In this document: positions 16,617-38,985 of the stretch, piece after piece
How positions within the stretch are numbered: position 1 is the stretch's first letter
Layout: every line of letters starts with the position of its first letter
From: Bryobacterales bacterium
Lineage (GTDB): Bacteria; Acidobacteriota; Terriglobia; Bryobacterales; UBA6623
Assembly: GCA_028819215.1 (NCBI GenBank)
Contig: JAPPMG010000054.1
Coordinates: 14,541 to 78,540 of the forward strand
Direction of reading: 5' to 3'
DNA: 64,000 nucleotides
The notes under the pieces: generated by a model
Database searches by the model: none
What the model saw: only the letters and a program-made list of their open reading frames with translations
What the model was told of the DNA's origin: nothing
Made by a program: the position numbers and the translations under genes

Positions 16617-16959
16617 TCTGTTGAATCCATTCGCAGACGTTCTTCAGGGGCTGGACGTCGACCAACACGGTGTAGCGTTGCCAGCCAAGGCGTCGGACAA
16701 CCGACGCCACCATACCGTATCAGCCGAGGGCCTCGATCGACTGCGACGGAAGTGCTTGCCACGGCACTCCGCGCACATCAGGCCTCTCCTCGCCGTCGGC
16801 GACTTCCATTCTGTTACAAGCTAGTGCGATCTCGTCATGCAGGAACTTACCTGTACAGCGCCGCCTATCAAGCACGCTCGAGTTGGTGTCACCGGACTAA
16901 CATGGATTGGTCAAGGTGGGTCGGTCGCTAAAACCCACAGTCCACGAGGAAGAGCAGCC

Positions 16960-23046: not shown

Positions 23047-23847
23047 ATGTCTGCAAATGCTGCACCGCGCGCCCGCGACGTCATCGCAGACCTAGCTGCC
23101 CGCGGCCAGTATAGCTTTGCCTCGTCTGAGTTTCGCTCGGCACTTGGCGTCTCCGAGCAGGCAGCACGTCAGGCGCTGAGCCGCGTCGCAGCCAAAGGGG
23201 AGATCGCAAGTCCGGCGCGAGGCTTCTACGTCATCGTGCCACCCGAGTACAGGCGGCTTGGCTGCCTGCCGGCTGACCAGTTCCTTCCGGCTCTCATGGA
23301 GCACCGGAGGGCCCGCTACTATGTCGGATTGCTCTCGGCCGCGCAATACCACGGAGCTGCCCATCATCGCCCGCAGGAGTTCCAGGTGATGTTGGGGACG
23401 AACAGGCCGATGATCGTCTGTGGTTCCGTCAGGGTCGCCTTCGTCGCGCGCAGAGAACTCGCCGCCGTGCCAGTGGAGAGCTTCAATAATCCACGCGGAA
23501 CGATTCTGGTCTCGACCGTAGAGGCGACGGCAGTCGATCTGGTCGGATACATGCATCGCGCCGGAGGTGTGGACCGAGTGGCGGGCGTGCTTTCCGAGCT
23601 TGGCGAGAATATGGATCCGGAGCGCCTCGCCGATGCTTCTGAATCTGCGTCGATCCTCTGGGTGCAGCGCCTGGGCTATCTGCTCGAGCGTGTCGGTGCT
23701 GGCGATAGGGCCGTTCTTCTCAAGGAGCATGTACGGCGGCGCGCGAGAAACTACACGAAACTCGTGCCCAGCGTGCGTGCTGACGGTGCGCCGCGCTCGC
23801 ACGACTGGCGTCTGTTCGTGAATGTAGGCGTAGAGGCGGACGTGTGA
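23047..23847 (+). CDS. abiEi: type IV toxin-antitoxin system antitoxin, AbiEi family
   Basis: 266-aa ORF. The N-terminal wHTH-like region reads FASSEFRSALGVSEQAARQALSRVAAKGEIASPARGFYVIVPPEY. Its stop overlaps the GTG start of the AbiEii gene (GTGA at 23844..23847). Confidence 0.85.
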   Translation: MSANAAPRARDVIADLAARGQYSFASSEFRSALGVSEQAARQALSRVAAKGEIASPARGFYVIVPPEYRRLGCLPADQFLPALMEHRRARYYVGLLSAAQYHGAAHHRPQEFQVMLGTNRPMIVCGSVRVAFVARRELAAVPVESFNNPRGTILVSTVEATAVDLVGYMHRAGGVDRVAGVLSELGENMDPERLADASESASILWVQRLGYLLERVGAGDRAVLLKEHVRRRARNYTKLVPSVRADGAPRSHDWRLFVNVGVEADV

Positions 23848-24674
23848 TCCCGCGGGACTACATCACCCAATGGCGGGAGCGGGCTCCGTGGAGCGAGGAC
23901 TTCCAGGTCGAGCAGGACCTGATCATCAGCCGCGCCTTGGTCGAGATGTTCTCCGATCCGGCTCTTGCTACAGCGCTTGCCTTCCGGGGAGGTACGGCGC
24001 TATACAAGCTCTACCTGACGCCGCCCGCCCGCTATTCCGAGGACATCGATCTCGTGCAGGTCGCGCCAGGGCCTGCTGGTACCTTGATGGACGGCCTGCG
24101 AGACGTCCTCGATCCTTGGCTCGGCGAAGCGCGATGGAAGCAGTCTCAAGGCCGGGTGACGTTCGGCTACCGGTTTCTGTCCGAGGACGTGCCGGCGATG
24201 AGGCTACGTCTCAAAGTCGAGATCAATACTCGTGAACACTTTGCGGTATTGGGCTTCACCAAACGCTCGTTCTCGGTCGATTCGCGGTGGTACTCCGGAA
24301 TGGCGAATATCACGACCTTCGAACTCGATGAATTGTTGGCAACGAAGCTGAGGGCGCTCTATCAGCGTCGCAAGGGCCGGGATCTCTTCGACCTAGCGAC
24401 GGGACTTGCCGATAAGCGAATCGATGCCGGACGGATCGCGGCGGCGTTTGGCGCGCACATGGAGCGTGAGGGCGATCCGGTGACCCGCGCGATGTTCGAA
24501 AGGAATCTCGCGGGCAAGGTGGGCGATGCTCAGTTCAATGCTGACATGAGCGCGCTTCTTAGGACGGGCTTCCAGTGGCGTGCGACCGAAGCGGCGCGGA
24601 CAGTATCCGAGCGGCTCATTGCGCTACTCCCGGGCGAGCCATGGAAGGGACGACCGGGGCGTGGGTCGGCGTAG
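23844..24674 (+). CDS. abiEii: nucleotidyltransferase toxin, AbiEii/AbiGii (DUF1814) family
   Basis: 276-aa ORF. AFRGGTALYKLYLTPPARYSEDIDLV is the AbiEii NTase core (GG..L.K....RYSEDID), with KVEINTREH downstream. Confidence 0.88.
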   Translation: MIPRDYITQWRERAPWSEDFQVEQDLIISRALVEMFSDPALATALAFRGGTALYKLYLTPPARYSEDIDLVQVAPGPAGTLMDGLRDVLDPWLGEARWKQSQGRVTFGYRFLSEDVPAMRLRLKVEINTREHFAVLGFTKRSFSVDSRWYSGMANITTFELDELLATKLRALYQRRKGRDLFDLATGLADKRIDAGRIAAAFGAHMEREGDPVTRAMFERNLAGKVGDAQFNADMSALLRTGFQWRATEAARTVSERLIALLPGEPWKGRPGRGSA

Positions 24675-24718
24675 GGCCTTGTACTGGTTCCATTGCCGTT
24701 CGCTTGGCTGCCCTTGCA

Positions 24719-24756
24719 CTTCTACAGGAAATAGGGGTAGCATAGACCTGTAGAAG
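24719..24756. promoter_or_regulatory. candidate PadR operator: CTTCTACAGG-N18-CCTGTAGAAG
   Basis: Perfect 10-bp inverted arms (24719..24728 and 24747..24756) lie 15-52 bp upstream of the PadR TTG start. The arms are identical at the paralogous site 28213..28250, while the spacer differs at 3 positions. Confidence 0.5.
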
Positions 24757-24770
24757 CGAAAGGGGACCTC

Positions 24771-25097
24771 TTGTCGAGCATCGACCTTCCGCAGGGCACT
24801 CTGGACCTGCTGATTCTCAAGACCCTCAACCTCGAGCCCCAGCATGGCTGGGGGATCTCGGAACGTATCCGACAGATCTCACACGAGGTTCTCCATGTCC
24901 AACAGGGATCGCTGTATCCAGCGCTGCATCGGCTGGAACGACGAGGGTGGATTCGAGCGACATGGGGCGTATCTGACAACAATCGGCGCGCCAAGTACTA
25001 CGAGCTCACGCCCGAAGGGCGGAGGCAACTGGAAGATGCATCCGCCTCATGGCAGAAGCTGTCCGCCGCCGTGCAGATCATTCTTGACACGGCCTAG
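24771..25097 (+). CDS. PadR-family transcriptional regulator (Acidobacterial ADOP-associated type)
   Basis: 108-aa ORF with a TTG start after AAAGGGGA. QGTLDLLILKTLNLEPQHGWGISERIRQISHEVLHVQQGSLYPALHRLERRGWI is the PadR wHTH. It sits immediately upstream of the permease. Confidence 0.88.
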   Translation: MSSIDLPQGTLDLLILKTLNLEPQHGWGISERIRQISHEVLHVQQGSLYPALHRLERRGWIRATWGVSDNNRRAKYYELTPEGRRQLEDASASWQKLSAAVQIILDTA

Positions 25098-25109
25098 CCG
25101 GAGGAGACG

Positions 25110-27782
25110 TTGCTCGGAGACCTGCTTTATCGAGGGCGTGCGCTATTCCGGCGCAAGGTCGTGGAGGACGATCTCGACGCAGAGTTGCAATTCCACCTGG
25201 ACAGACTGACGGAGCAGCATGTCCGCGCCGGAAAAACGCCAGACGAAGCCCGGCGGCTCTCGAGGATAGCTCTCGGCGGCGTTTCTCAGATCAAGGAGCA
25301 GTGCCGCGAGTCTTGGGGAGTGGGCTGGATTCACGCTGTGGCCAAGGATCTCGGCTACGCCTTGGTGCGCGTGCGGAGATACCCTCGGTCAGCAGCCATG
25401 ATCGAGGGCAGTCTGGCGCTCGGAATCGGAATGAGTGTCGCCATGTTTTCGCTGGTGGACGCGGTTCTGTTGCGCCCCCTGCCGTTCCCGAACCAAGACT
25501 CGATTTATGTGATCCAGAAGGCAGATCCTCTCGCGGGAGCCCACGTCGAGGAGCTCGCATACCCAGAGTTGGTTGATCTTCAGGAGAGCATCCCGGGGTT
25601 CGAGTATGTGGCTGTCACCCCGACCTCCCTCTACGGCTATGCCAGGGTGCTGGAGACCGGGACGGCCGATCCGGTCCAACTCGAAGCCTCACCCGTATCG
25701 CACGACTTCTTCCGTGTTCTCGGTGTTACCCCCCGCCTGGGTCGGGGGTTCACCGATTCCGACGAACGGGTTGGCGCCCCGCCGGTCGTTGTGATTTCGG
25801 ATCGCACATGGCGTGAACATCTGGGCGCGGATCCCGGAATCATCGGTCGGACCGTGCGCTTGAACGGCCAGGGCCACAGCGTGATCGGCGTCATGGCGCC
25901 TGGCGTCGAGTTTCCGCGGGGAGCTGCCCTTTGGGTTCCGCTGGGGATCGAACAGCGCGTCGTCGAGCGTCGCGGCGCGACGTTCCTGCAAGCGGTGGCG
26001 CGCTCCAAACCCGGCTATCCACGTCAACAGGTCGATCGGGACGTGAGCGCTCTCTTCACGCGACTCGCGAATGAGTACCCGGAATCGTATTCGAGCTCGC
26101 AGCGGGGAGTGGTAACACCGCTGGTCAACTATTGGACCGGATCGGCAAGGATTCACTTGTGGATCGTCCTCGGGGCCTCTCTACTCTTGCTGACCGCGTC
26201 CGCGATCAGCTCGGGGGGACTGCTGCTCTCACGCGCGGTGTCACGTCGTTCCGAGATTGCCACGCATCTCGCGCTAGGAGCTCCGCCGAGGCGAATCTTT
26301 ACGCGGATGGCCGCCGAGGGTGCAGTCGCGGGAGTCATCGCCGCAATCGCCGGACTTGGTATCGCGTACTTAGTGATTCACTCCTTGGTGAAATGGCCTC
26401 CAGCCGATATTCCGCGACTGTCCGAAGCGTCGTTGGATCTGAATTCCTTTTGTTTCGCTGTCGGAGCGGCAGCCTTTGTCGCTGTAGTGTGCTCGCTTGC
26501 GCCTGGATGGGCTCTCTCGAGAATGCGCCTCGAATCCGCAATCAGGGAAGGCGATCCTCGATCTTCGGTGTCGCACCGCGCCAATCGGTCGCGCGGCCTA
26601 TTCGTTCTTGCTCAGTCTGCGGTGACGTTTGTGCTGTTGGCAACGGCCGTCCTGCTCGTGCTGAGCTATCGCTCCGTGGCACTCGTTGAGACCGGTCTCG
26701 CGAATCGCGACGCACTAACTATGGATGTATCGCTGCGAGGTCCGGGCTTGTTTCCGTCCCAAGCCTTCGATCCGGTTACAACCGACGCATTCTACTCGCG
26801 CCTCTTGCAACGGTTGCGGGAGGAGCCAGGCGTCACCTCGGCGGGCGCAATTCTGCTGCGGCCACTTGCAGGCCCTATCGGATGGGATATCCCCTACGAG
26901 TTCGAGTTCGAGGCGGGCAGTTGGGATGGCAAGCAGCGTCCGAAGGCGAACTACGAGGTCGTGACCGCCGACTACTTCGAGACCGTTGGATCGCCGTTGC
27001 TGCAAGGGCGGGACTTCGACAGTCGCGATTCGCAGGAAGCGGAACCGGTCGCAATTATCAGCGAGACCCTCGCCGACCGAGTTCGATCCGCTGGTCACAC
27101 GCCGCTTGGCCATCGCGTCAGGCTCGCGATCCGCTGGAGTCCAGGGTGGATGCGCGTGGTGGGCATCTCCGGAGATGCCCGCTATCGATCCGGCACTCAC
27201 TCGGGCGCGCATATCTTCGTGCCAATTCTACAGGCAGGGCAAGCGACTCGACATGTCGTCATCCGCGGACCTCGACCCCGCCAAGAACTTTCGGAGCTGG
27301 TACAGCGCTTGGTGAGGGAGATCGATCCCAGCCAGAATGCGGGCGACCCGCTCACGATCGGTGAACTGATCGATAGGGACACTGCGCGACATCGATTCAA
27401 TGTGATCATGCTGCTGTGGTTCGGTGCCTGTGCAGTGTTCCTTGCCGTAACTGCGGTCTATAGCGTGATCGCTGAGACGATGGCGGCCCGCCGGACTGAG
27501 GTAGCGATCAAGTCAGCGCTGGGTGCGCAGCGAAACCAAGTTGTGCGCGACTTGGTCGTGCGAACGATACGTTTTGCTGTTTTGGGTCTCGCGGTCGGCA
27601 CCGCAGCTGTGTCCGTGTTGGGCACACTGGGTCCGGATGTGTTTCGCGGCACTTCCGCACGCGATCCGATTGTCTTGATCCCAGTCGCGGCCTTCCTCTT
27701 CGTCGTTTCTCTGGGCGCAGCTGTCTGGCCAGCTTGGCACGCAACGCGAGACAATCGCCGGACTTTGCTTCGTGAGAGCTAG
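25110..27782 (+). CDS. duplicated FtsX/MacB-type permease, ADOP family (copy 1)
   Basis: 890-aa ORF with a TTG start after GGAGGAG. Its architecture is an N-terminal amphipathic cytoplasmic segment, a TM segment, a MacB-like periplasmic domain and an FtsX 4-TM bundle, and then that same arrangement again. There is no ATPase domain. Confidence 0.88.
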   Translation: MLGDLLYRGRALFRRKVVEDDLDAELQFHLDRLTEQHVRAGKTPDEARRLSRIALGGVSQIKEQCRESWGVGWIHAVAKDLGYALVRVRRYPRSAAMIEGSLALGIGMSVAMFSLVDAVLLRPLPFPNQDSIYVIQKADPLAGAHVEELAYPELVDLQESIPGFEYVAVTPTSLYGYARVLETGTADPVQLEASPVSHDFFRVLGVTPRLGRGFTDSDERVGAPPVVVISDRTWREHLGADPGIIGRTVRLNGQGHSVIGVMAPGVEFPRGAALWVPLGIEQRVVERRGATFLQAVARSKPGYPRQQVDRDVSALFTRLANEYPESYSSSQRGVVTPLVNYWTGSARIHLWIVLGASLLLLTASAISSGGLLLSRAVSRRSEIATHLALGAPPRRIFTRMAAEGAVAGVIAAIAGLGIAYLVIHSLVKWPPADIPRLSEASLDLNSFCFAVGAAAFVAVVCSLAPGWALSRMRLESAIREGDPRSSVSHRANRSRGLFVLAQSAVTFVLLATAVLLVLSYRSVALVETGLANRDALTMDVSLRGPGLFPSQAFDPVTTDAFYSRLLQRLREEPGVTSAGAILLRPLAGPIGWDIPYEFEFEAGSWDGKQRPKANYEVVTADYFETVGSPLLQGRDFDSRDSQEAEPVAIISETLADRVRSAGHTPLGHRVRLAIRWSPGWMRVVGISGDARYRSGTHSGAHIFVPILQAGQATRHVVIRGPRPRQELSELVQRLVREIDPSQNAGDPLTIGELIDRDTARHRFNVIMLLWFGACAVFLAVTAVYSVIAETMAARRTEVAIKSALGAQRNQVVRDLVVRTIRFAVLGLAVGTAAVSVLGTLGPDVFRGTSARDPIVLIPVAAFLFVVSLGAAVWPAWHATRDNRRTLLRES

Positions 27783-27980
27783 CTATCTGCAGTGCGCCAG
27801 CGTTCGAATCGCCATCGCCCCGGATTGGAACCCTTGCTGATGGCCTATCTGTCCCGTTGGTACGACTGCCCGCCCCCGGGCCTGCGGCTGGCCGTACGTT
27901 CGCAGGTCGATCCCGACCCGCATACTGATTCGGTGGGCAGGTCTGACCATGGCATCGGCACGGAAGCCCTCATTGGAGCC

Positions 27981-28183
27981 CTTGAGCATGTTGGCGCTGG
28001 CGATAGGGCCGTTCTTCTCAAGGAGCATGTGCGCCGGCGCGCGAGGAACTACACAAAGCTCCTTCCCAGCGCGTGTGCTGAGGGTGCTCCGCGTTCGAGG
28101 GACTGGCGTCTGTTAGCGAATGCAGCCGTGGAGCCGGACAAGTGATCCCACGGGACTACATCACCCTATGGCGGGAGCGGGTT
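27981..28183 (+). pseudogene. AbiEi 3'-terminal remnant (about 55 codons, frame and stop intact) plus the first about 14 codons of AbiEii, truncated by deletion
   Basis: LEHVGAGDRAVLLKEHVRRRARNYTKLLPSACAEGAPRSRDWRLLANAAVEPDK* aligns with the AbiEi C-terminus LERVGAGDRAVLLKEHVRRRARNYTKLVPSVRADGAPRSHDWRLFVNVGVEADV*. The GTGA overlap is retained at 28142..28145. After GGCGGGAGCGGG the sequence jumps to the PadR leader. It lies within track ORF 27792..28145. Confidence 0.75.
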
Positions 28184-28212
28184 CCATTGCCGTTCGCTTG
28201 GCTGCCCTTGCA

Positions 28213-28250
28213 CTTCTACAGGGAATACGAGTAGCATAGACCTGTAGAAG
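28213..28250. promoter_or_regulatory. candidate PadR operator (paralogous copy): CTTCTACAGG-N18-CCTGTAGAAG
   Basis: Arms at 28213..28222 and 28241..28250 are identical to those at 24719..24756, in the same position relative to the PadR start. Confidence 0.5.
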
Positions 28251-28264
28251 TGAAAGGGGACCTC

Positions 28265-28591
28265 TTGTCGGGCATCGACCTTCCGCAGGGCACATTGGAC
28301 CTGCTGATTCTCAAGACCCTCAACCTCCAGCCGCAGCATGGCTGGGGTATCTCGGAAAGGATCCGACAGATCTCCGATGAAGTTCTCCAAGTCCAACAGG
28401 GATCGCTGTATCCGGCCCTGCATCGGCTGGAACGTCGAGGGTGGATTCGCGCGACATGGGGTGTGTCTGATAACAATCGGCGCGCCAAGTACTACGAGCT
28501 TACGCCCGCAGGGCGGAGCCAACTAGAAAATGCATCCGCCTCATGGCGGAAGCTGTCCGACGCCGTGCAGATCATTCTTGACACGGCCTAG
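28265..28591 (+). CDS. PadR-family transcriptional regulator (copy 2)
   Basis: The track ORF starts at GTG 28250. I prefer the TTG at 28265, which is conserved with copy 1 and has the same AAAGGGGA upstream. The protein is nearly identical to copy 1. Confidence 0.85.
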   Translation: MSGIDLPQGTLDLLILKTLNLQPQHGWGISERIRQISDEVLQVQQGSLYPALHRLERRGWIRATWGVSDNNRRAKYYELTPAGRSQLENASASWRKLSDAVQIILDTA

Positions 28592-28600
28592 CCGGAGGAG

Positions 28601-31273
28601 ATGTTGCTCAGAAACCTGCTTTATCGAGGCCGTGCGCTATTCCAGCGCAAGGTCATGGAGGACGATCTCGATGCAGAGTTGCAATTCCACCTAGACCGAC
28701 TGACGGAACAACATGTTCGCGCCGGAAAAGCGCCAGACGAAGCCCGGCGGCTCTCGAGGATAGCTCTGGGAGGCGTTACTCAGATCAAGGAGCAGTGCCG
28801 TGAGTCCTGGGGAGTGAGCTGGATTCACGCTCTGGCCAGGGATCTCGGCTACGCCTTGGTCCACATGCGTAGATACCCTCGGTCTGCAGCCATGATCGTA
28901 GGCAGCTTGGCGCTCGGAATCGGAATGAGCGTCGCCATGTTTTCGCTGGTGGACGCGGTTCTCCTGCGACCCCTGCCGTTCCCGGATCAGGATTCGATCT
29001 ATGTGATCCAGAAGGCAGATCCTCTCGCGGGAGCCCACGTCGAGGAACTCGCGTACCCGGAGCTTAGCGACCTGCAGGAGAGCATCCCGGGGTTCGAATA
29101 CGTAGCTGTAACGCCAGTGGCTCTCTACGGCAACGCCCGAGTGCTCCAGTCTGGAACGGCCGACCCAGTGCAACTAGAAACAGCCCTCGTGTCGCACGAC
29201 TTCTTCCGAGTTCTGGGTGTCTCGCCACGCATGGGAAGGAATTTCGTAAGTGCCGACGAACGAGTCGGTGCACCACCAGTTGTCGTCGTATCTGATCAAA
29301 CTTGGCGTGATCAATTGGGGGCGGACCCCGGCATCATCGGCCGCACGGTGCGCCTCAATGGTCAGGGCCATACGGTGATCGGTGTCATGGCGACGGGCGT
29401 CGAGTTCCCTCGAGGGGCTGCCCTCTGGATACCGCTAGGGATCGAAGAAGGGATCGTCGAGCGTCGCGGAGCGACTTTCCTGCAAGCGGTGGCGCGTGCC
29501 AAGCCTGACTATTCACGTCAACAGGTCTATAGCGACGTGAGGGCGCTATTCAAGCGACTCGCAGCCGAATACCCGGAAGCGTATTCAAGCTCGCAGCGGG
29601 GAGTGGTGATACCGCTGGTTAACTATTGGACCGGATCGGCAAGGATTCACCTGTGGATCGTCCTCGGGGCCTCTCTGCTTCTGCTGATCGCGTCCGCGAT
29701 CAGCTCGGGGGGAATTCTGCTCTCACGCGCAGTGTCACGCCGTTCCGAAATTGCCACGCATCTCGCGCTCGGAGCTCCGCCGAGACGAGTTCTTGCCCAG
29801 ATGGCCGCCGAGGGTGCAGTCGCGGGAGGCATCGCCGCAATTGCCGGACTGGGAATCGCGTACTTGCTGATTCGCTCCTTGGTGAGATGGCCCCCAGCCG
29901 ATATTCCGCGACTGTCCGAGGCCTCGTTGGATCTGAACTCCTTTTGTTTCGCTGCCGGGGCGGCGGCCTTTGTGGCTGTTGTGTGCTCGCTTGCACCCGG
30001 ATGGGCAGTCTCGAGAACGCGCCTCGAATCCGCAATCAGGGAAGGCGATCCTCGATCTTCGGTGTCGAACCGCGCCAAGCGGGCGCGCGACCTATTCGTT
30101 CTTGCGCAGTCCGCGGTGACCTTCGTGCTGCTGGCAACCGCCGTCCTGCTCGTTCTGAGCTATCGTTCCGTGGCGTTCGTTGAGACCGGTTTCGCGAATC
30201 GCGATGCACTAACGCTGGATGTCTCGCTGAGAGGTCCGGGCGTGTTTCCTGCCCTAGGCTTCGACACCGGTGCGCGGCACGTATTCTATTCGCACCTCTT
30301 GCAACGGTTGCGCGAGGAGCCAGGTGTTACCTCGGCCGGTGCAATCCTACTGCGGCCGCTTGCGGGCCCCATCGGATGGGATATCCCCTATGAATTCGAG
30401 TTCGAGGCGGGCAGTTGGGATGGCAAGCAGCGTCCTAAGGCGAACTACGAGGTCGTAACCGCCGACTACTTCGAGACCGTTGGATCACCGTTGCTGCAAG
30501 GGCGGGACTTCGACAGTCGCGATTCGGAGGAAGCGGAGCCGGTCGCGATTATCAGCGAGACGCTAGCCGACCAAGTGCGATCCGCTGGCCACACGCCCCT
30601 TGGCCATCGCATCCAGGTAGGGAGTGGGAGGCGGGGCTGGAGGCGCATCGTTGGCATCTCTGGAGACGCCCGCTACCGGTCCGGCACTCACTCAGGCGCG
30701 CACATTTTCCTGCCAATCCTACAGGCGAATCAACCGACGCGGCACGTCGTGATTCGCGGCCCCGTGCCTCGTCAGGAGCTCTCGGCGCTGGTACAGCGCG
30801 TTGTGAGGGAAATCGATCCTAGCCAGAATGCGGGCGACCCGCTCACGATCGGTGAACTGATCGATTGGGACACGGCACGACATCGATTCAATGTGATCCT
30901 GCTGCTGTGGTTTGGCGCCTGTGCGGTGATCCTTGCCGTTACTGCGGTCTATAGCGTGATCGCCGAGACGATGGCGGGCCGCCGGACCGAGGTCGCAATC
31001 AAGTCGGCCCTGGGGGCACAGCGAAACCGAGTTGTGCGCGACTTAGTGGTGCGTACCCTACGATTCGCTGTTCTCGGTCTCGTGCTCGGCACCGCGGCTG
31101 TCTCCTCGTTTGGCAGCCTTAGTCTGGATGTGTTTCGCGGCACTTCCGCACAGGACCCGATTGTCCTGATCTCAGTAGTGGCCTTCCTCTTTGTTGTTTC
31201 TCTGGGCGCCGCCGTCTGGCCGGCCTGGCACGCAACGCGAGACTGTCGCCGCACCTTGCTTCGTGAGAGCTAG
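28601..31273 (+). CDS. duplicated FtsX/MacB-type permease, ADOP family (copy 2)
   Basis: 890-aa ORF with an ATG start after GGAGGAG. It is collinear with copy 1, has no indels, and most residues are identical. Confidence 0.88.
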   Translation: MLLRNLLYRGRALFQRKVMEDDLDAELQFHLDRLTEQHVRAGKAPDEARRLSRIALGGVTQIKEQCRESWGVSWIHALARDLGYALVHMRRYPRSAAMIVGSLALGIGMSVAMFSLVDAVLLRPLPFPDQDSIYVIQKADPLAGAHVEELAYPELSDLQESIPGFEYVAVTPVALYGNARVLQSGTADPVQLETALVSHDFFRVLGVSPRMGRNFVSADERVGAPPVVVVSDQTWRDQLGADPGIIGRTVRLNGQGHTVIGVMATGVEFPRGAALWIPLGIEEGIVERRGATFLQAVARAKPDYSRQQVYSDVRALFKRLAAEYPEAYSSSQRGVVIPLVNYWTGSARIHLWIVLGASLLLLIASAISSGGILLSRAVSRRSEIATHLALGAPPRRVLAQMAAEGAVAGGIAAIAGLGIAYLLIRSLVRWPPADIPRLSEASLDLNSFCFAAGAAAFVAVVCSLAPGWAVSRTRLESAIREGDPRSSVSNRAKRARDLFVLAQSAVTFVLLATAVLLVLSYRSVAFVETGFANRDALTLDVSLRGPGVFPALGFDTGARHVFYSHLLQRLREEPGVTSAGAILLRPLAGPIGWDIPYEFEFEAGSWDGKQRPKANYEVVTADYFETVGSPLLQGRDFDSRDSEEAEPVAIISETLADQVRSAGHTPLGHRIQVGSGRRGWRRIVGISGDARYRSGTHSGAHIFLPILQANQPTRHVVIRGPVPRQELSALVQRVVREIDPSQNAGDPLTIGELIDWDTARHRFNVILLLWFGACAVILAVTAVYSVIAETMAGRRTEVAIKSALGAQRNRVVRDLVVRTLRFAVLGLVLGTAAVSSFGSLSLDVFRGTSAQDPIVLISVVAFLFVVSLGAAVWPAWHATRDCRRTLLRES

Positions 31274-31585
31274 CTGCCTGCAATGCGCCAGCATCCGCAT
31301 CACCATCGCCTCGAATCAGAATCCGCGCTGATGGCTCACCAAGGGGATCGCTACAGCTACCCTCCTCAGGACTTGTGGCCGGTCGTACGTCCGCAGGTCG
31401 GTTCCTTCTCGTATGCTGAATCCGTGGGCAAGTCTGAGCACGGCGTCGCCCTAGCAGCTCTTGGCGGAGCCATTGAGTCAGCGACAAGCTTGGTCGGCTG
31501 GTTGGTTGCAACGCGCCTGACTGCCTCGACCGGGATTGGCTCGTCTTCCATGCTCGCGCTGGGCTTGGCCTAGGAGAACCGTAAC

Positions 31586-32839
31586 TTGGACAAGGCACGC
31601 ATCGGATACGCCCGGAGGAAGCGCATCCGGCGGATCGTCTTGGGATCCGTTGCGGGAACGGCATTCTTGGCAGTTGCTTGGGTGGTGTCCCGCATCGAGC
31701 CGGCAGCTCCTGGCGTGGATGCTGCTGCGGTCTTCACCGACACCGTCGAGCGTGGCGAGATGCTACGGCAGGTTCGGGGCATCGGAACGCTCGTGCCCGA
31801 GGCTGTGGTCGTGATCGCCGCAAGCGATGCTGGGCGCGTCGAGCGACGCCTCGTCCAGCCCGGTCAGTCTGTAAAACCGGGCACTGTGCTGCTCGAACTC
31901 AGCAGTCCGCAGGTCGAGCAGGAATACCTCGACGCCGAGGCTCAACTCAAGGAAGCCGAGGCCGACCTTGCCAACCTCCGGGCGCAGCTCGAGGACCAGC
32001 GTCTCACCCAGGAGTCAGTGACCGCCGACGTGGAAGGGCAGTACCTTCAGGCCAAGGCGCAGTACGAGGCTGACCTCGCACTCTCGGAGGAGGGTCTGAC
32101 GGATCAGGTCACCCTGATGAAGTCGCGCGTCTCGATGGAACACCTGCGCAAGCAGTTCCAGTTGGAGCGCGCCCGGGAGGACGCCCGCAAGCCCTCGGTA
32201 GACGCACAGCTGACGGCGCAGAGGGCCCGCATCGCACAGATGGAAGCACTCGTGGCGCTGCGCGAAGAAAAGGTCGACCGACTCAGGGTTCGGGCCGGGA
32301 TGAACGGGGTCCTCCAGCTCATGGATGTTGAGGTCGGACAGCTGGTCGCCCCTGGCGACGAGCTGGCACGAGTGTCCGATCCGACGCACCTCAAGGCGGA
32401 GCTCAAGATCCCGGAGACACTGGTGAATGACGTGGCCGTCGGGCAGCGGGCGGAGGTCGACACCCGGAACGGGGTGATCGAGGGGGTGGTCTCGCGCATC
32501 GATCCGGCCGCGATCGAAGGGACCGTACTGGTTGACATCAGGCTGCTCGGCGAAATGCCCCGAGGCGCCCGGCCCGACCTTAGCGTGGACGGGACGATCG
32601 AACTCGAGCGGCTCGAGAATGTACTGCACGTGGGTCGCCCCATCCATGCCAGGGAGGAGAGCCTCATGGGACTCTTCAAGCTGGAAGAAGACCAAGCCCA
32701 CGCCTCGCGCGTCCAAGTTCAGGTGGGCAAGGTATCAGTCAGCACGATCGAAGTACGTTCCGGCCTGAGCGAGGGCGACAATGTGGTCTTATCCGACATG
32801 TCTGCGTGGGACGCCTACGACAGGATCCGGCTCGAATAG
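31586..32839 (+). CDS. HlyD/MacA-type periplasmic adaptor (membrane fusion protein)
   Basis: 417-aa ORF with a TTG start 9 nt after AGGAG. It has an N-terminal TM anchor, a lipoyl/hairpin region (VKPGTVLLELSSPQVEQEYLDAEAQLKEAEADLANLRAQLE), and beta-barrel and membrane-proximal regions. Confidence 0.88.
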   Translation: MDKARIGYARRKRIRRIVLGSVAGTAFLAVAWVVSRIEPAAPGVDAAAVFTDTVERGEMLRQVRGIGTLVPEAVVVIAASDAGRVERRLVQPGQSVKPGTVLLELSSPQVEQEYLDAEAQLKEAEADLANLRAQLEDQRLTQESVTADVEGQYLQAKAQYEADLALSEEGLTDQVTLMKSRVSMEHLRKQFQLERAREDARKPSVDAQLTAQRARIAQMEALVALREEKVDRLRVRAGMNGVLQLMDVEVGQLVAPGDELARVSDPTHLKAELKIPETLVNDVAVGQRAEVDTRNGVIEGVVSRIDPAAIEGTVLVDIRLLGEMPRGARPDLSVDGTIELERLENVLHVGRPIHAREESLMGLFKLEEDQAHASRVQVQVGKVSVSTIEVRSGLSEGDNVVLSDMSAWDAYDRIRLE

Positions 32840-32879
32840 GCAGCCAGTTTCGCATCAAAAGGAGACGTGAAGTCAGACA

Positions 32880-33572
32880 ATGGCAGATTCTACAAACGGC
32901 AGTGCACCACTTATCCGCTTGGAGGGTGTGTCGAAGGTATTCTTCACCGATGAGGTGGAGACGCACGCGCTTTCGGGCATCGACTTCGAGATCCGTGATG
33001 GCGAATACATCGCGATCTCGGGTCCCTCGGGCTGCGGCAAGTCGACGCTGCTGTCGATTCTCGGATTGCTCGACACCCCCACCGCTGGCGTGTACCGGCT
33101 GAACGGCGAGTCAGTCGAGGATCTGAATGCCAGGCAGCGGGCCCGCATCCGGAACCGCCAGATCGGCTTCATCTTCCAGGCGTTCAACCTGATCGGTGAC
33201 CTGACGGTGTTCGAGAACGTCGAACTGCCACTCACCTATCGGGGGATGCCGTCTTCCGAACGCAAGAAGCGGGTGGAGGATGCCCTGGAACGCGTCGGTA
33301 TGGCGCACCGCATGAAGCACTACCCCTCGCAGCTGTCGGGCGGGCAGCAGCAGAGAGTCGCGGTGGCCAGGGCCCTCGGAGGAGATCCGTCGGTGCTGCT
33401 GGCTGACGAGCCGACAGGGAATCTGGACTCGAAAAACGGCGAGGCCGTGATGGACCTGCTCCAAGACGTCCATCAGGGCGGGGCCACTATCTGCATGGTG
33501 ACCCACGACCCGCGGTTCGAGGCCCGCGCAAAGAAAGTAGTGCGCCTGTTCGACGGGAAGATCGTCGAATAG
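32880..33572 (+). CDS. stand-alone ABC transporter ATP-binding protein, MacB/LolD type
   Basis: 230-aa ORF with Walker A GPSGCGKST, Q-loop, signature LSGGQQQRVAVARAL, Walker B VLLADEPTGNLD and H-loop MVTHD. Confidence 0.93.
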   Translation: MADSTNGSAPLIRLEGVSKVFFTDEVETHALSGIDFEIRDGEYIAISGPSGCGKSTLLSILGLLDTPTAGVYRLNGESVEDLNARQRARIRNRQIGFIFQAFNLIGDLTVFENVELPLTYRGMPSSERKKRVEDALERVGMAHRMKHYPSQLSGGQQQRVAVARALGGDPSVLLADEPTGNLDSKNGEAVMDLLQDVHQGGATICMVTHDPRFEARAKKVVRLFDGKIVE

Positions 33573-33903
33573 GGGCTCGGTGGCTGGTGGTGAGATCTGC
33601 CCTCGCCCAGCATCCCCCAGAATGAGACTAGTGACGACGATTGGGAGGTGGCTGGACTGAGTTCAGGGTCGGTTCTGGGTCTGCATAGCGGGCTCGAAGA
33701 CCGCAAGGCCGACGGCATCCTTGAACGCTGGCGCATTGTGGCGCCGATTTGATCGCGGCTCGGCCATCTCCGCAAGAAGTCCGCCTTTATGTCACGCCGG
33801 CTATCCAGTTCTCGAAGCCAGTTGGCCGAAGTGCCAGACATTCCAAGAACGTTCCAGATCGGACGGAATCCACGGCTGGGATCCGGGCACCCTAGTTGAG
33901 TTC

Positions 33904-36330
33904 ATGCGACCGCCGTTGTCGGCTTGGAGGGGTTCGGTGGGGTCTTTGCGCGCAACTTTGTTGCGAGAGCGTTGTCGGGCAGCCGCACTGCATGTGGTCT
34001 TGGTGTTCTGTGCCGTCGCTAGCGCCCAGGACACGGTCGGAACGGGGGTAGTCCGCGGCGAAGTCGTCCGGAGTGACGGTACTCCGGGAGAGTTCCTTCA
34101 GGTCTGTATCGCAGGCACCGGTCTGTGCTCCCCCAGTGACCAGAGCGGCCGGTTCGCTCCAATCGACGCACGGCCGGGACTGGTCCAGCTCGAGGTCAGG
34201 ATCGAATCGGGCGGGACCTTGCTGAGCGGGACTGTGCAAGTCCGGGCGGGGCAGACCAGTGAGGTTCGCTTGGAACTGCCGGACGTGGCTACCGTCGAGA
34301 CATCGGTGGCCGTCAGCGCTGCCGCACTACCCGTGCCGGACGAAGTTGTCAGCTCGGGGGTTTCCATCCAGAATCGCGAGATCGCCAAGACCGCGGGGAC
34401 CCTTGAGGATGTTTCAAGGTACGTCTCGACTCTCCCAGGAGTCGTAACCGGTTCCGCTGATTTCAGGAACGACATCATCGTCCGTGGCGGAAGCCCTCTC
34501 GAAAACCTCTTCGTCGTAGACAACATCGAAATCCCGAATATCAACTCGTTTGCGAATCTCGCTTCCGCCGGAGGCACTGTCAGCCTTCTAGACGTTCAGC
34601 TCATTGAAGATGTGACGTTCCTCACCGGGGGCTATCCCGCGCCGTACATCAATCGCCTCTCGAGCGTCATGCAGGTTGCGCAGCGAGAAGGCAGCCGAGA
34701 CAGGTTCCGCGCGCGTGCGACGCTCGCATACGCCGGTGCCGGCGGCGTGGTGGAAGGGCCGTGGGCCCGGGGAAAGGGGTCTTGGATCGTCTCGGCGCGT
34801 CGGAGCTTTCTGGATCTCTTCACCGACGACATCGGTTTCGGCGGTGTGCCCGTCTTCTACTCGTTTACCGGCAAGGCAGTTCGGGACTTCGGGAACTTCG
34901 ACCGGATATGGGTGACCAGTATCACGGGCATCGATTCGATTCGACTGGGCCTGACAGAGAACACCGAACCCGATGAATCGCTCGGGGCGTTCGACATCCG
35001 ATACGCCGGTCGCCGGAACGCGACAGGCTTCAATTGGCAGCGGATCCTCGGAACACGAGGGGTCGGACTGCTTGGTCTCACTCACTCGAGCGCGACGGTA
35101 GACTCCACAGTCAAGGATCTTGTCCGGTCTGGCCCCATCCCGTCCGAGCTGTCGGCAGGGCAGGCTATCGCCGCCGGAGCCGTGACGTTCCGACAGGACT
35201 CGTCAGAGGACGAAACCACGATCAAGTACGACCTGACGATTCATGCGGGACGCGCTGGAGAATACCGTGTCGGCGGGGCTCAGAAGTTCTTCGTCAATGA
35301 CTACGTCACCCTCTCACCGCTCGGGTACGACGGTCCGTTCGCCGTCGTCCCCGACTTGAACCCGATCGACTTGCGCGAGAGGTTCACCGCGACGCAAGGC
35401 AGCGCCTATTTCCAAGGCACCCACAAGTTTGGCCGGCGAATGCGATTCACCGTGGGTGGCAGATTCGACAAGTACGCGCAATTCGGTGTGTCAAACGTGC
35501 GCATGAGCCCCAGGGCTGGAGTTTCGGTAGCAATCGCAGAGAACCTTTCCTGGAACGCCAGCTGGGGAATCTACCACCAACTCCCGGTCTACCTGTTTCT
35601 GGCTGCGTTTCCGGAGAACAGATCTCTGATTCCCGCCAGATCGGACCACTGGATCAGTGGGCTGTCTTGGACGCCAAAGCGGAACCTCCGGGTGACGCTC
35701 GAGGCGTATTCCAAGCGCTACAAGGACTATTCGGTCGCAACGCAGTTCCCGGCGCTGTCGTTGGCGAACGTCGGCGACACCTTCGATGTCCGTGACATCT
35801 TGTACCCGATGACCAGCGCGGGCCGCGGCAGGGTCCACGGCGTCGAGCTGTTCGCGGAGAAGAAGTTCTCCGAAAAGTGGTTTGGACAGCTCAACGTGGC
35901 GTATTCCAGGGCGCGCCACGCCGGACTGGACGGCAAGCTGCGCCCCGGGGCGTTCGACAGGCCGTTCGCCTTCAATGCCGTTGGTGGCCGTCGCATTGGT
36001 CAGAAGTGGGAAGTGGCGTTCCGAACGGCTTACCTGACAGGCAGGCCCTACACGCCGTTCGACATCGAGCTCTCGGAGTCGCAACGCCGCGGAGTGTTCG
36101 ATCTGGACCGAGTGAACACGATGCGCTACATCCCGTTCTTCACACTGGACTTGAGGCTCGACCGCACGTTCTTGGTCCGGGATCGAGAGGTCGTTGTATA
36201 TGCCGGCCTCCAGAACGTGACCGGGCGCAGGAACCAGACCACCCTGCTGTGGAATCGTGTGACAAACAGCCCGCGGTTTCCGACTGGGCTTTCCCGGTTT
36301 CTCATCGTTGGCTGGGAGTGGAACTTCTAG
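33904..36330 (+). CDS. TonB-dependent receptor-like outer-membrane barrel with N-terminal carboxypeptidase-regulatory-like domain
   Basis: Track ORF trimmed to ATG 33904 (signal AALHVVLVFCAVASAQD). The CarboxypepD_reg-like region reads VVRGEVVRSDGTPGEF...SGRFAPIDARPG. The plug reads LEDVSRYVSTLPGVVTGSADFRNDIIVRGGSPLENLFVVDNIEI. The C-terminus ends in an aromatic residue (...GWEWNF). Confidence 0.8.
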   Translation: MRPPLSAWRGSVGSLRATLLRERCRAAALHVVLVFCAVASAQDTVGTGVVRGEVVRSDGTPGEFLQVCIAGTGLCSPSDQSGRFAPIDARPGLVQLEVRIESGGTLLSGTVQVRAGQTSEVRLELPDVATVETSVAVSAAALPVPDEVVSSGVSIQNREIAKTAGTLEDVSRYVSTLPGVVTGSADFRNDIIVRGGSPLENLFVVDNIEIPNINSFANLASAGGTVSLLDVQLIEDVTFLTGGYPAPYINRLSSVMQVAQREGSRDRFRARATLAYAGAGGVVEGPWARGKGSWIVSARRSFLDLFTDDIGFGGVPVFYSFTGKAVRDFGNFDRIWVTSITGIDSIRLGLTENTEPDESLGAFDIRYAGRRNATGFNWQRILGTRGVGLLGLTHSSATVDSTVKDLVRSGPIPSELSAGQAIAAGAVTFRQDSSEDETTIKYDLTIHAGRAGEYRVGGAQKFFVNDYVTLSPLGYDGPFAVVPDLNPIDLRERFTATQGSAYFQGTHKFGRRMRFTVGGRFDKYAQFGVSNVRMSPRAGVSVAIAENLSWNASWGIYHQLPVYLFLAAFPENRSLIPARSDHWISGLSWTPKRNLRVTLEAYSKRYKDYSVATQFPALSLANVGDTFDVRDILYPMTSAGRGRVHGVELFAEKKFSEKWFGQLNVAYSRARHAGLDGKLRPGAFDRPFAFNAVGGRRIGQKWEVAFRTAYLTGRPYTPFDIELSESQRRGVFDLDRVNTMRYIPFFTLDLRLDRTFLVRDREVVVYAGLQNVTGRRNQTTLLWNRVTNSPRFPTGLSRFLIVGWEWNF

Positions 36331-36630: not shown

Positions 36631-37449
36631 CTAGGGTTCGCGTTCCGGTGGAGGCCTGTCGGTAGCGAGGCTCTGGAGTCGCTCCTCCAAGGCCCGCACT
36701 CGCTCCTCCGCTGCACTCGCACGCTCTTCCGCCGCCCGTCGCCGTTGATCGGCTGCTGCCAGTCCCCCGTCGAACTCCTCACCCGTGGCCGGGTCGCGGA
36801 ACACTAGCACGGTTGCCCCAGCCTGCCTCTCGCTGCGCAAATCCAACCCCAGCACCTCGCTCCAGAGGTGCCGCCCCGCGCCCGCCACAGGCTCCACCGG
36901 GCCATAGCGGCCCGCGCTGGCCACATACCCCTCCAGCGGACTGCTCATCAATGCCCCGTCCGGGTCCAGCCGCCAGTACTCGCGCACCCCGATCCGGGCG
37001 TATTCCCGCGCCTTGTGCTGAGCATCATTGTGCGTTGTCGACGGTGACGCCACCTCCAGCACGAAATCGGGCCCTTTGCCTTCCTCCCAGACCTTGTATG
37101 AGCCGCGCTTCACCGCCCGCGGCACCCCCAGCACCACCTGCACATCCGGTTGCAACTTGGCCGCCGTCTGGCCGCGCTGGTAGTAAACCACCAGTTCCAT
37201 CGCCACCAGCACGTTCTCGCGCTCTGCGAAGTGGAGGTCCAATGCCGCCGCAGCCTGCCGCACCGCCACCCCGTGCGCGACGCTCTGCGCGATCCAATGT
37301 CCCTCCGGATACTCGATGTCCTCGGGCTCCGGTGCCGCTGCGGGAGCAGCTGGCGCGGTCCGGGCGGGGTCTTGCGTTGCTGTGGCGGGAGTCGACGACA
37401 TGGCGCACTCGAACGCGCCCGAAGGCGCTGCCTTCGTAGAATACAGCAC
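36631..37449 (-). CDS. Uma2-family (DUF820) endonuclease with Ala/Pro-rich N-extension and C-terminal coiled coil
   Basis: The PD-(D/E)xK-like core reads LQPDVQVVLG...KGPDFVLEVASPSTTHNDAQHKAREYARIGVREYWRLDP. The C-terminal region reads AAEERASAAEERVRALEERLQSL. The start is uncertain, and ATG 37401 is an alternative. Confidence 0.78.
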   Translation of the reverse strand: MLYSTKAAPSGAFECAMSSTPATATQDPARTAPAAPAAAPEPEDIEYPEGHWIAQSVAHGVAVRQAAAALDLHFAERENVLVAMELVVYYQRGQTAAKLQPDVQVVLGVPRAVKRGSYKVWEEGKGPDFVLEVASPSTTHNDAQHKAREYARIGVREYWRLDPDGALMSSPLEGYVASAGRYGPVEPVAGAGRHLWSEVLGLDLRSERQAGATVLVFRDPATGEEFDGGLAAADQRRRAAEERASAAEERVRALEERLQSLATDRPPPEREP

Positions 37450-37704: not shown

Positions 37705-38985
37705 ATGACCCGCAAGCAGTCCAGAGACCGCCGACAGTTCCTTAAGGGAGCGAGCTACGCGCTCGCCTTGCCGCTGCTGCCCTCCCTGCCGGGCGCGGTG
37801 GAGGCCACGCCCGAGCCATCGAATGGCAAAGCCAAGCGTCTGGTATGTGTCGGCACGCAACTGGGGTTCTACAAGCCGGAGTTCTTCGCAGAAAGCGACA
37901 CGCCTCGACTGATGCAGCCGTTCAGGGATGCCGGTCTGGACAGCAAGTTCACCACCATTTCTGGCTTGGATCACAAGGGCCCGACCGGCAATGGCCACGA
38001 ACTCGTGTACACGCTCTATACCGGCCACGTTGTCCGCAGCATCTCGTTGGACCAGTTCGTCGCCCCCACTCTTGGCGGTGACACGCGGTACGAGTCGTTG
38101 CAGCTCTGCTGCGGCGAGGCACAGCAGAAGGCGTCTCTGTCGTTCTCAGCTTCCGGCCTTCCGCTTCCTGTGACGCTCCGTCCCAGTGCGCTTTACGCCC
38201 GTGTGTTCGGGGCTGGCTCGGTGGCGCTGAAGCGGCAGACCTATTTGATTGATTCCGGCAAGAGCTTGCTAGATGAGTTGACTGGCGAGGCGAAAGTCGT
38301 CAGTGCGCGCGCCAATGCCCCCGACCGCAGGAAGCTGGACGAATACTTCACTTCGATCCGCGCTGTGGAGGAGAAGCTCAAGCGCCGCCGGGATTGGCTC
38401 GACAGGCCGTTTCCAGTGCCTCCCGAGGGTCTGGAACTTCCGGTCGAAGAAAACGTCGACGGTTCGTTTCTGCTCGACAACGAAGACTTGATGTGGGACT
38501 TGATGGCGCTGGCGATCACGAATGATTCGACCCGCGTAATCTCAATGACCATTCCGATCACCGACCGGGCCCTGATGGTCAACGGCAGCTTCATGGGCGA
38601 GGGCTATCACCGCCTGTCCCACCACGGGAACAAGCAGGAAAAGATCAGCGGCTTGCTGACTATCGAGGAGCGCCACATGCAGGGCGCGGCCCGCTTCCTG
38701 AAAGCCCTCAGCGAGGCGCAGGATGTTGATGGCAGGTCCATGCTGGATTCCACCGTCACGCTGATCGGCAGTGCAATGGGTGACGCCGCTGCCCATCGCC
38801 GGACCAACTACCCGCTCTTCGTGGCGGGCGGTGGCTTCAACCACCGGCGCCATATCTCCTGCGGAGACGGCGCGGTTGCGAACACCATGGCGTGCGACCT
38901 GTATGTGACCGTGTTGCAGCAGTTGGGATTCGAAGTCGATAAGTTCAGCACCAGCGAGTCCGATCTCAACGGCGTGCTGACATGA
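37705..38985 (+). CDS. DUF1552 domain protein with twin-arginine signal
   Basis: 426-aa ORF with the TAT motif SRDRRQFLKGASYALALPLL. It is paired by an ATGA overlap with the downstream multi-DUF cytochrome-c-motif protein, the usual DUF1552/DUF1592 arrangement. Confidence 0.78.
   Translation: MTRKQSRDRRQFLKGASYALALPLLPSLPGAVEATPEPSNGKAKRLVCVGTQLGFYKPEFFAESDTPRLMQPFRDAGLDSKFTTISGLDHKGPTGNGHELVYTLYTGHVVRSISLDQFVAPTLGGDTRYESLQLCCGEAQQKASLSFSASGLPLPVTLRPSALYARVFGAGSVALKRQTYLIDSGKSLLDELTGEAKVVSARANAPDRRKLDEYFTSIRAVEEKLKRRRDWLDRPFPVPPEGLELPVEENVDGSFLLDNEDLMWDLMALAITNDSTRVISMTIPITDRALMVNGSFMGEGYHRLSHHGNKQEKISGLLTIEERHMQGAARFLKALSEAQDVDGRSMLDSTVTLIGSAMGDAAAHRRTNYPLFVAGGGFNHRRHISCGDGAVANTMACDLYVTVLQQLGFEVDKFSTSESDLNGVLT

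Follow-up and report, generated by a model that had tools for sequence, protein, structure and literature searches.

ADOP permeases beside a MacA-like adaptor and a stand-alone ABC ATPase in a Bryobacterales bacterium: probable parts of a type VII ABC envelope machine

We describe a block of six genes from a Bryobacterales bacterium (assembly GCA_028819215.1). The block lies in a 64,000-nucleotide stretch of contig JAPPMG010000054.1 (positions 14,541 to 78,540 of the forward strand), which is called the window in the following and whose first letter is position 1. According to the open reading frame (ORF) listing and profile searches, the order of the genes on the plus strand is PadR regulator, ADOP permease, PadR, ADOP, MacA-like adaptor and MacB/LolD-type ATPase, and no permease gene is found downstream of the ATPase. 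The sequences suggest, with a probability that we estimate at about 0.6, that the block encodes parts of a type VII (MacB-family) ABC envelope machine, most likely a MacAB-like envelope pump. At the level of the families, comparison with other genomes makes it highly probable that ADOPs are linked with this adaptor-ATPase family, and it is fairly probable that the two ADOPs of the window use the adaptor-ATPase core next to them.

ADOP genes in the neighbourhood of the adaptor

Relatives of the adaptor were collected by a pattern scan with one genome per species. The scan gave 576 relatives, of which the best 80 (47-95% identity) were kept together with 10-kb flanks. The ORFs of these loci (designated by L numbers) were called and classified by phmmer against the proteins of the window; 60 loci are well-flanked, and a co-directional chain was defined by gaps of at most 600 bp. 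ADOPs are found in the co-directional chain of the adaptor in 42 of the 60 well-flanked loci, 6 loci have them only elsewhere within 10 kb, and the remaining 12 have none. Most of the 42 chains also hold an ATPase. The neighbouring duplicated permeases that were scored, five upstream and five downstream of adaptors, are all ADOPs (10/10, with 732-997 bits against TIGR03434). Behind the adaptor there is nearly always an ATPase of the type present in the window, which we call NBD-A (NBD, nucleotide-binding domain; ~235 aa, 350-470 bits), and a second, distinct ATPase, NBD-B (~222 aa, ~190 bits), occurs in 22/60 loci. Conventional FtsX permeases of 400 aa, the companions that an earlier note on this DNA had set against ADOPs as a challenge to its own proposal, occur in none of the 60 well-flanked adaptor loci, so that proposal withstands the comparison.

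According to the earlier note, too, ATPase genes are essentially never found next to ADOP genes; this is false for present-day genome data, as the 42 of 60 adaptor loci demonstrate. To our knowledge, the "orphan" wording of TIGRFAMs is what the acronym implies; the acronym and the name of the model are the parts that we confirmed. In the window an ATPase gene lies 1.6 kb 3' of the second ADOP gene on the same strand, i.e. the ADOPs are not orphan in the sense of having no adjacent ATPase. However, this is an annotation note and not a sequence criterion, so their membership in the family stands. Nor is the window a unique first handle on the energisation of ADOPs, as had been hoped, since ADOP-ATPase adjacency recurs across genomes.

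The order PadR-ADOP-adaptor-ATPase was found in no fewer than six separate lineages of the adaptor (window/L016/L095, L077, L083, L084, L086 and L045/L063), with ADOP-to-adaptor gaps of 15 bp (L083) and 31 bp (L084) in two of them. The ADOPs found in this recurrent PadR-ADOP-adaptor-NBD-A architecture are polyphyletic. Such repeated, independent juxtaposition is what functional coupling would predict. TolC-family outer-membrane efflux protein (OEP) genes were found in or beside the cluster at three loci (L020 14521-16440, L022 6107-7804 and L036 8082-9884). The order in L020 is adaptor, NBD-A, ADOP, outer-membrane factor (OMF), ADOP, NBD, which places the OEP gene between two ADOPs.

Many loci contain several permeases per adaptor: there are at least two full-length ADOPs in 24/60 loci and at least three in 21/60, and one locus (L071) combines two ATPases and a single adaptor with six full-length ADOPs, and has two partial ADOP ORFs where the locus ends. 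In eight multi-ADOP operons (L023, L025, L027, L034, L035, L041, L048 and L057) the adaptor is followed by three to four ADOPs, and the first, second and third ADOP positions correspond to separate orthologous clades (~845, 815 and 808 aa, respectively). As each position has its own orthologous clade, the set of paralogs is old and maintained, not a recent amplification. A further observation concerns the ATPases. In L018 the gene after the adaptor is a 494-aa ORF (11314-12798) that contains two ATPase domains, in the place of the separate NBD-A and NBD-B genes of relatives. This ORF may be a natural NBD-A/NBD-B fusion or the product of a sequencing frameshift; a real fusion would suggest that NBD-A and NBD-B work as a heterodimer.

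Hidden conventional permeases beside the modules that appear to be "permease-less" were considered and rejected. The recurrent unclassified neighbours are sigma-54 response regulators and histidine kinases, and the other flanking genes encode a transposase, an MscS channel, carbohydrate-binding proteins and a TolC-like OEP, none of them FtsX-like. As a separate observation, an NtrC-type sigma-54 response regulator and a PAS histidine kinase flank the module in 25 loci (including L001, L017-L019, L022, L049, L053, L075 and L082), and the sigma-54 motif TGGCAC-N5-TTGC is found within 450 bp 5' of the adaptor in 9/80 loci vs ~0.4 expected. The window has neither the NtrC-type two-component pair nor this strict pattern. 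A sigma-54 promoter 5' of its adaptor was rejected, the weak GG-N10-GC match at this place not being kept in L011 and L016.

The permeases, the adaptor and the ATPase

Both ADOPs of the window pass the TIGR03434 model (ADOP family duplicated permease, cutoff 622.3 bits), though marginally (Table 1). Each contains two MacB_PCD and two FtsX domains (Pfam) in one chain; the halves are 24% identical to each other, and each half aligns with the MacB permease. The AlphaFold2 model of ADOP2, built from a 40-sequence alignment (pLDDT 69, pTM 0.58, with a poorly modelled periplasmic domain 1), consists of a four-helix cytoplasmic prefix, 8 transmembrane (TM) helices and two periplasmic domains. The best Foldseek match of this model is E. 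coli YbbP (9ge6_A, E 7.6e-15, 12% identity in the structural alignment), and further matches are MacB, Spr0695, LolE and BceB, all with probability 1.00. The order that characterises type VII permeases, i.e. TM1, periplasmic domain, TM2, coupling helix, TM3, TM4, is seen in the model with moderate confidence.

Short helices follow TM2 (381-389) and TM6 (795-803) in the ADOP2 model, and we predict that these are the helices that couple to the NBD. They bear the motifs SRRSEIATHLALGA and GRRTEVAIKSALGA, the second of which aligns with the MacB segment ERTQEIGVRMAVGA, which we take to be the major coupling helix of MacB. The core residues of the motifs (E383, L390, G391 and A392; E797, I800, L804 and G805) are invariant in 40 homologs. 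A looser coupling pattern was searched in 117 full-length ADOPs, of which 58 have two matches and 49 have one. The N-terminal part of the window ADOPs is a permease prefix 1 domain (residues 1-77; 25110-25340 and 28601-28830, respectively). This domain is present in 5/5 PadR-side ADOPs tested vs 0/5 operonic ADOPs, and contacts with PadR or with the NBD are both possibilities.

The adaptor scores above the RND_mfp cutoff of 94.9 bits, and its best sequence matches in the PDB are the MacA entries 4dk1 and 4dk0. In its AlphaFold2 model (overall pLDDT 61.7) residues 8-36 form a TM helix, and residues 108-168/174-231 form an alpha-hairpin of two ~60-residue helices (pLDDT ~90). Orthologs of 417 aa are abundant at 60-100% identity in Bryobacterales and Acidobacteriia, and the TTG start of the gene at 31586 is preceded by a GGAGAA ribosome-binding site. 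The best-scoring NCBIfam models for the ATPase are DarD (250.7 bits), MacB (232.3) and LolD (222.3), with FtsE and YbbA likewise among its best named relatives, all of them under the equivalog cutoffs. Matches in the PDB are Spr0694 (5xu1, 232 bits), the MacB NBD, MJ0796, LolD and YbbA. Walker A (GPSGCGKST), the Q-loop, the signature (LSGGQQQRV), Walker B (LLADEPT) and the H-loop (VTHD) are intact, i.e. the protein has the properties of a type VII NBD, belonging to the MacB/LolD/FtsE clade with its catalytic motifs preserved. The PDB and NCBIfam rankings thus bear out what had been read from the letters, namely a MacB/LolD-type ATPase with the motifs listed at the time and a MacA-type adaptor.

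Layout of the block

The features of the block are collected in Table 1. Every gene was found where the earlier note had placed it, and the profile searches agree with its family calls. Both PadR proteins belong to the Acidobacterial PadR family in as much as they score above the TIGR03433 cutoff (101.8 bits) and adjoin an ADOP gene. The PadR genes stop 9-12 bp 5' of their ADOP genes, and the adaptor and ATPase genes are 40 bp apart. From homology with PadR1, the real start of PadR2 is probably the TTG at 28265, which gives 108 aa. A phmmer search with the proteins of the block detected no further ADOP, FtsX-like permease or MacB/LolD-type ATPase in the 64-kb window.

Table 1. Features of the gene block and its regulatory region (positions in the window)
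Feature	Position	Strand	Evidence
PadR-ADOP cassette copy 1 (promoter/operator, PadR1, ADOP1, ~175 bp downstream)	24686..27957	+	blastn
Inverted repeat 1, putative PadR operator and autoregulated promoter	24711..24764, core 24719-24756	+
PadR1, Acidobacterial PadR-family regulator	24771..25097	+	TIGR03433 154.1 bits; Pfam PadR 8.3e-22
ADOP1, 890 aa, duplicated MacB/FtsX-type permease with N-terminal prefix domain	25110..27782	+	TIGR03434 628.9 bits; perm_prefix_1 54.8 bits
PadR-ADOP cassette copy 2	28180..31448	+	blastn
Inverted repeat 2, putative PadR operator	28205..28258, core 28213-28250	+
PadR2	28250..28591	+	TIGR03433 153.8 bits; ORF listed from GTG 28250
ADOP2, 890 aa	28601..31273	+	TIGR03434 632.7 bits
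Non-coding spacer between ADOP2 and adaptor, 312 bp	31274..31585	+
Membrane-anchored MacA/HlyD-type periplasmic adaptor, 417 aa	31586..32839	+	RND_mfp 120.5 bits; HlyD_3; HlyD_D23
Stand-alone MacB/LolD-type ABC ATPase (NBD-A), 230 aa	32880..33572	+	ABC_tran 1.2e-34
CarboxypepD_reg, Plug and TonB-barrel protein, gene after the ATPase	33721..36330

The PadR-ADOP cassette of the window was recently duplicated in tandem: the copies are 86% identical over 3277 aligned bases (blastn), and the ADOP1 and ADOP2 proteins are 87% identical. A close relative (L095, ADOP 89% identical) has a single cassette in otherwise identical synteny, with the order AbiEi, AbiEii, PadR, ADOP, adaptor, ATPase, TonB-dependent receptor, DUF1552, PSD. 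In each cassette of the window an inverted repeat spans a promoter-like pair (TTGCAC...TAGCAT) and has perfect 10-bp arms in its core, CTTCTACAGG-N18-CCTGTAGAAG. This gapped palindrome occurs twice in the 64 kb vs 0 expected, each time just 5' of a PadR gene, and it is plausible that it serves as the PadR operator. An operator common to the adaptor was rejected, the palindrome being present before the two PadR genes only.

The spacer between ADOP2 and the adaptor contains a 96-aa ORF (31283-31573), which was considered as a linking gene of a tight operon and rejected. Its substitutions are spread evenly over the codon positions (25/29/25 in comparison to L011, 33/29/28 to L016), it has 0 family matches in Pfam, and its resemblance to the ORF at 27792-28145 is owing to DNA duplication only. 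The two ORFs, one in the spacer after each ADOP gene, are spurious ORFs of G+C-rich DNA with no codon-position bias in their substitutions. A consensus scan detected no intrinsic terminator in 31274-31585, a result that is uninformative for a G+C-rich acidobacterium. The sequence neither shows nor excludes co-transcription of ADOP2 and the adaptor. The layout is most simply read as PadR-ADOP units under separate control, with an adaptor-ATPase unit behind them.

Age of the adjacency and points against a local partnership

In a neighbour-joining tree of the adaptors, the window falls into a clade of Bryobacterales, the outgroups of which (L001, L020 and L021) have adaptor-NBD-A-ADOP-NBD-B operons. 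Inside the clade of the window the operonic ADOP and NBD-B were lost, and a two-gene adaptor-NBD-A module remains. In L003 (11105-12505 and flanks, from a 9.1-Mb genome) the NBD-B gene after adaptor-NBD-A is broken into fragments of 93 and 142 aa, with transposases, a group II intron reverse transcriptase and a truncated ADOP in the vicinity; this looks like a snapshot of operon decay. The present surroundings of the module vary within the clade. Three loci (L004, L010 and L029) have no permease within 10 kb, three others (L012-L014) have ADOP-like ORFs on the opposite strand only, and L006 and L015 have two ADOPs at a distance of 2.8 kb 5' of the module. The PadR-ADOP cassette is found directly 5' of the module in the window, L011, L016 and L095 only.

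A number of points weigh against the reading that the ADOPs of the window work with the adjacent core. Firstly, adaptor orthologs at 76-87% identity have no adjacent co-directional ADOPs (L004, L010 and L012-L014). Secondly, neither an adaptor nor an ATPase lies within 10 kb of the ADOP2 homologs at 82, 78, 77 and 61% identity, and one of these loci is a PadR-ADOP-PadR-ADOP array with nothing else related. The adjacency of this ADOP lineage and the module is thus confined to relatives with at least ~87% ADOP identity (L011, L016 and L095), and since the homologs at 61-82% identity are orphan, the specific adjacency seen here is young. Thirdly, the spacer is non-coding, diverges faster than the adjoining genes and has no PadR palindrome, so that co-regulation is not indicated and a single operon of ADOP2 and the adaptor is not shown. 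Furthermore, the window ADOPs are, judged by scores just over the TIGR03434 cutoff, divergent members of the family, and the predicted structures of ADOP2 and of the adaptor are of moderate confidence only (pLDDT 69 and 62). Finally, the 64-kb window contains neither a TolC/OEP outer-membrane channel gene, for which an unlinked OMF, as in E. coli, is possible, nor the second ATPase, NBD-B, that is common in other lineages. The earlier idea of a split MacAB-like pump with an ADOP as its membrane part therefore gains support at the level of the family; in the window itself the adjacency is shallow and the link weaker.

The same facts can be read in a different way, i.e. the genes might be neighbours without being partners. 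The module would then serve ADOPs encoded elsewhere, and the cassettes would be recent arrivals that are powered by another ATPase, or only incidentally by this one. The restriction of the adjacency to very close relatives and the orphan homologs agree with this possibility, as do the three unrelated genes that separate the ADOPs from the module in L006 and L015, the non-coding spacer with no common operator, and a cassette that is evidently mobile or duplicable and adjoins a toxin-antitoxin pair. We nevertheless regard it as doubtful. That six or more separate lineages of the adaptor have the PadR-ADOP-adaptor-ATPase order, two of them with gaps of 15-31 bp, is not predicted by chance, and there is no other ATPase or permease candidate in the 64 kb. 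In addition, permease-less modules need some ADOP in trans, and ADOPs are the sole permease family seen with them.

Comparison with known systems

It is useful to compare the block with systems of known composition. The combination of a large FtsX-type permease, an adaptor and a separate ATPase is already known from DarBCD (PMC8442675), the trans-envelope exporter of darobactin in Photorhabdus. Among the NCBIfam models, that of DarB has 777 positions, the window adaptor covers the DarC model (417 positions) over its full length, and the window ATPase has its best score with DarD. However, the scores remain far under the cutoffs (DarD 250.7 vs 375 bits, DarC 84.2 vs 450 bits), and the window ADOPs have no match to DarB (cutoff 700 bits) at E <= 0.001. 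DarBCD also has one permease in one operon within a biosynthetic gene cluster, whereas the window has two PadR cassettes 5' of a separate core.

The MacAB-TolC systems of E. coli, A. baumannii and A. actinomycetemcomitans, which work by mechanotransmission from the periplasm outwards (PMC5985334), resemble the block in their type VII permease halves (periplasmic core domain, FtsX TM bundle and coupling helix), their MacB-type NBD and their MacA-type adaptor, for which a long hairpin is predicted in the window. The difference lies in the permease: MacB is an NBD-fused 4-TM homodimer, whereas an ADOP is an NBD-less 8-TM tandem fusion of non-identical halves. In terms of scores, the ADOPs (34.6-39 bits) and the ATPase (232.3 bits) fall short of the MacB equivalog (PRK10535, cutoff 966 bits), and the adaptor, though MacA is its best sequence match in the PDB, reaches 21.1 bits against a MacA cutoff of 342 bits. 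The DevBCA glycolipid exporter is likewise not matched (DevA 197.4 vs 295.8 bits, DevB 35.8 vs 129 bits), and its DevC permease is a single unit, in contrast to the duplicated permeases described here.

Like the block, YbbAP(-TesA) combines a stand-alone ATPase with a double FtsX permease that is a single chain and has two periplasmic domains. Two additional linking helices bring the TM total of YbbP to 10, and in fused permeases the NBDs are always separate (PMC5985334); the ADOP model has 8 TM helices. The window ATPase scores 209.2 bits against the YbbA equivalog cutoff of 336 bits. YbbAP works with a periplasmic hydrolase partner, TesA, and has no adaptor (PMC12646458), which raises the question whether ADOPs, too, use the ATPase without the adaptor, as inner-membrane extractors like YbbAP or LolCDE, or whether the adaptor serves only a subset of them. 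That YbbP is the closest solved fold, that periplasmic domain 1 of the ADOP is divergent and poorly modelled, and that an outer-membrane channel gene is absent from the window would fit such an arrangement. We consider it improbable, as the adaptor and NBD-A nearly always adjoin each other and ADOPs, the order adaptor-ADOP-ADOP-ADOP is found in many loci, and TolC-like genes are embedded in three clusters.

Taken individually, the proteins of the window score below the equivalog thresholds of MacA, MacB, DarC, DarD, DevA, DevB and YbbA and stand outside these families proper, yet most likely work like them. What sets the block apart is a direct tandem fusion with 8 TM helices in the model, cassettes that combine predicted PadR control with a prefix domain, and a core that occurs with several permeases or with none. 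In Psychroflexus torquis, genomic island 43 carries about ten ADOP paralogs beside ATP-binding transporter genes; they are highly expressed, and efflux was suggested (PMC3914696). That organism belongs to the Bacteroidota, and the paper makes no claim on an energising ATPase or adaptor and describes no PadR cassettes (PMC3914696). Beyond it, the searchable literature has essentially nothing on how ADOPs are powered.

Permease-less modules and a possible shared core

In the modules that have no permease nearby, the genes diverge mostly at third codon positions and keep every catalytic motif. For example, the adaptors of L004 and L010 differ at 24/16/126 sites by codon position, with 109 synonymous vs 36 non-synonymous codon changes. 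In view of purifying selection and intact motifs, the reading of the module as a decaying remnant was rejected; under such selection the permease-less modules are functional and must use a membrane partner encoded elsewhere. It is very improbable that ADOPs are ATP-independent sensors or transducers that act on PadR (e.g. via the prefix domain) next to an unrelated or decaying adaptor-ATPase pair: the loss of the operonic ADOP and NBD-B in the adaptor clade of the window, the broken NBD-B of L003 and the distribution of the prefix domain would be in line with it, but both NBD-coupling motifs are kept in PadR-linked ADOPs, and the module is under strong purifying selection with its catalytic motifs intact.

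Conserved cores with no permease, together with operons that have three to six ADOPs per adaptor, suggest that one core may serve several ADOPs. We tentatively speculate, as a possibility rather than a likelihood, that many interchangeable, scattered ADOPs share the adaptor-ATPase pair as their energising core and conduit, each ADOP being a PadR-induced, substrate-specific cassette. One ATPase module apart from many substrate-specific membrane components is familiar from group II ECF transporters and from the multitask ATPases MsiK and MsmK. However, these are importers with unrelated folds and without adaptors, and the sharing of a core by ADOPs is our hypothesis. If true, the efflux repertoire would be modular and expandable, with the organisation of group II ECF transporters on a type VII ABC fold, and this would account for the orphan look of most ADOPs as well as for the large families of ADOP paralogs in Acidobacteria.

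Proposed mechanism

For the MacAB-like envelope pump that we favour, the following scheme can be drawn. An ADOP would be the whole membrane part in one polypeptide, equal to a fused MacB or LolCE permease dimer, and two copies of the stand-alone ATPase would act on its two coupling helices and deliver the power strokes. In lineages that retain NBD-B, an NBD-A/NBD-B pair would sit on the ADOP instead. The alpha-hairpin of the anchored adaptor would join the periplasmic domains of the ADOP to a TolC-like outer-membrane channel encoded elsewhere. Substrates from the periplasm or from the outer leaflet of the inner membrane could then be expelled or extracted by ATP-driven mechanotransmission, as in MacAB-TolC and YbbAP (PMC5985334, PMC12646458). 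Each ADOP cassette would be switched on separately via its own autoregulated PadR repressor. The adaptor-ATPase core would probably be under its own promoter, and elsewhere this promoter would often be sigma-54 dependent. We infer the homodimer stoichiometry of the ATPase, the direction of export, the logic of PadR induction and the use of a TolC-like channel.

Surroundings of the block

Directly 5' of PadR1 lies an AbiEi antitoxin/AbiEii nucleotidyltransferase toxin pair of the type IV toxin-antitoxin or abortive-infection type (23047-24674), and L095 has such a pair in the equivalent place. On the other side, the TonB-dependent-receptor-like gene after the ATPase is kept in close relatives only. 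Judged by its orthologs in L011 and L016, which have 808 aa, its real start is probably near 33904, and with this start the 331-bp gap between the ATPase and the TonB-type gene given by the earlier note holds. In L006 (12668-21077) a receptor in the corresponding place is followed by BtuF/FecCD/ABC and cobalamin-biosynthesis genes. A cobalamin or other riboswitch between the ATPase and the receptor was considered and rejected, with 0 Rfam matches in 20000-42000. Genes nearby encode a Uma2-family endonuclease, a DUF1552 and DUF1592/1588/1585/1587/1595 pair, two PSCyt1/PSCyt2/PSD1 "planctomycete cytochrome" proteins and two sulfatases (36631-37449 (-), 37705-41444, 46292-48634 (-), 58818-61334 (-), 16837-18354 and 41818-43386). 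These families are typical of Planctomycetota and Verrucomicrobiota, yet the setting here is acidobacterial.

Implications

ADOPs are among the largest paralogous membrane-protein families of the Acidobacteriota, a dominant soil phylum, and they have been labelled as orphan and of unknown function since their description. The present analysis names candidate partners for them, i.e. a family of 417-aa MacA-like adaptors and a family of 230-240-aa MacB/LolD-type ATPases, with a link that is kept across the phylum. Its main value lies in this concrete partner assignment for a large uncharacterised family and in the hypothesis of a shared core. If the assignment is true, ADOPs would be reclassified as membrane subunits of inducible envelope pumps or extractors, and the 8-TM direct tandem fusion and the sharing of subunits would join the known permutations of type VII ABC systems.

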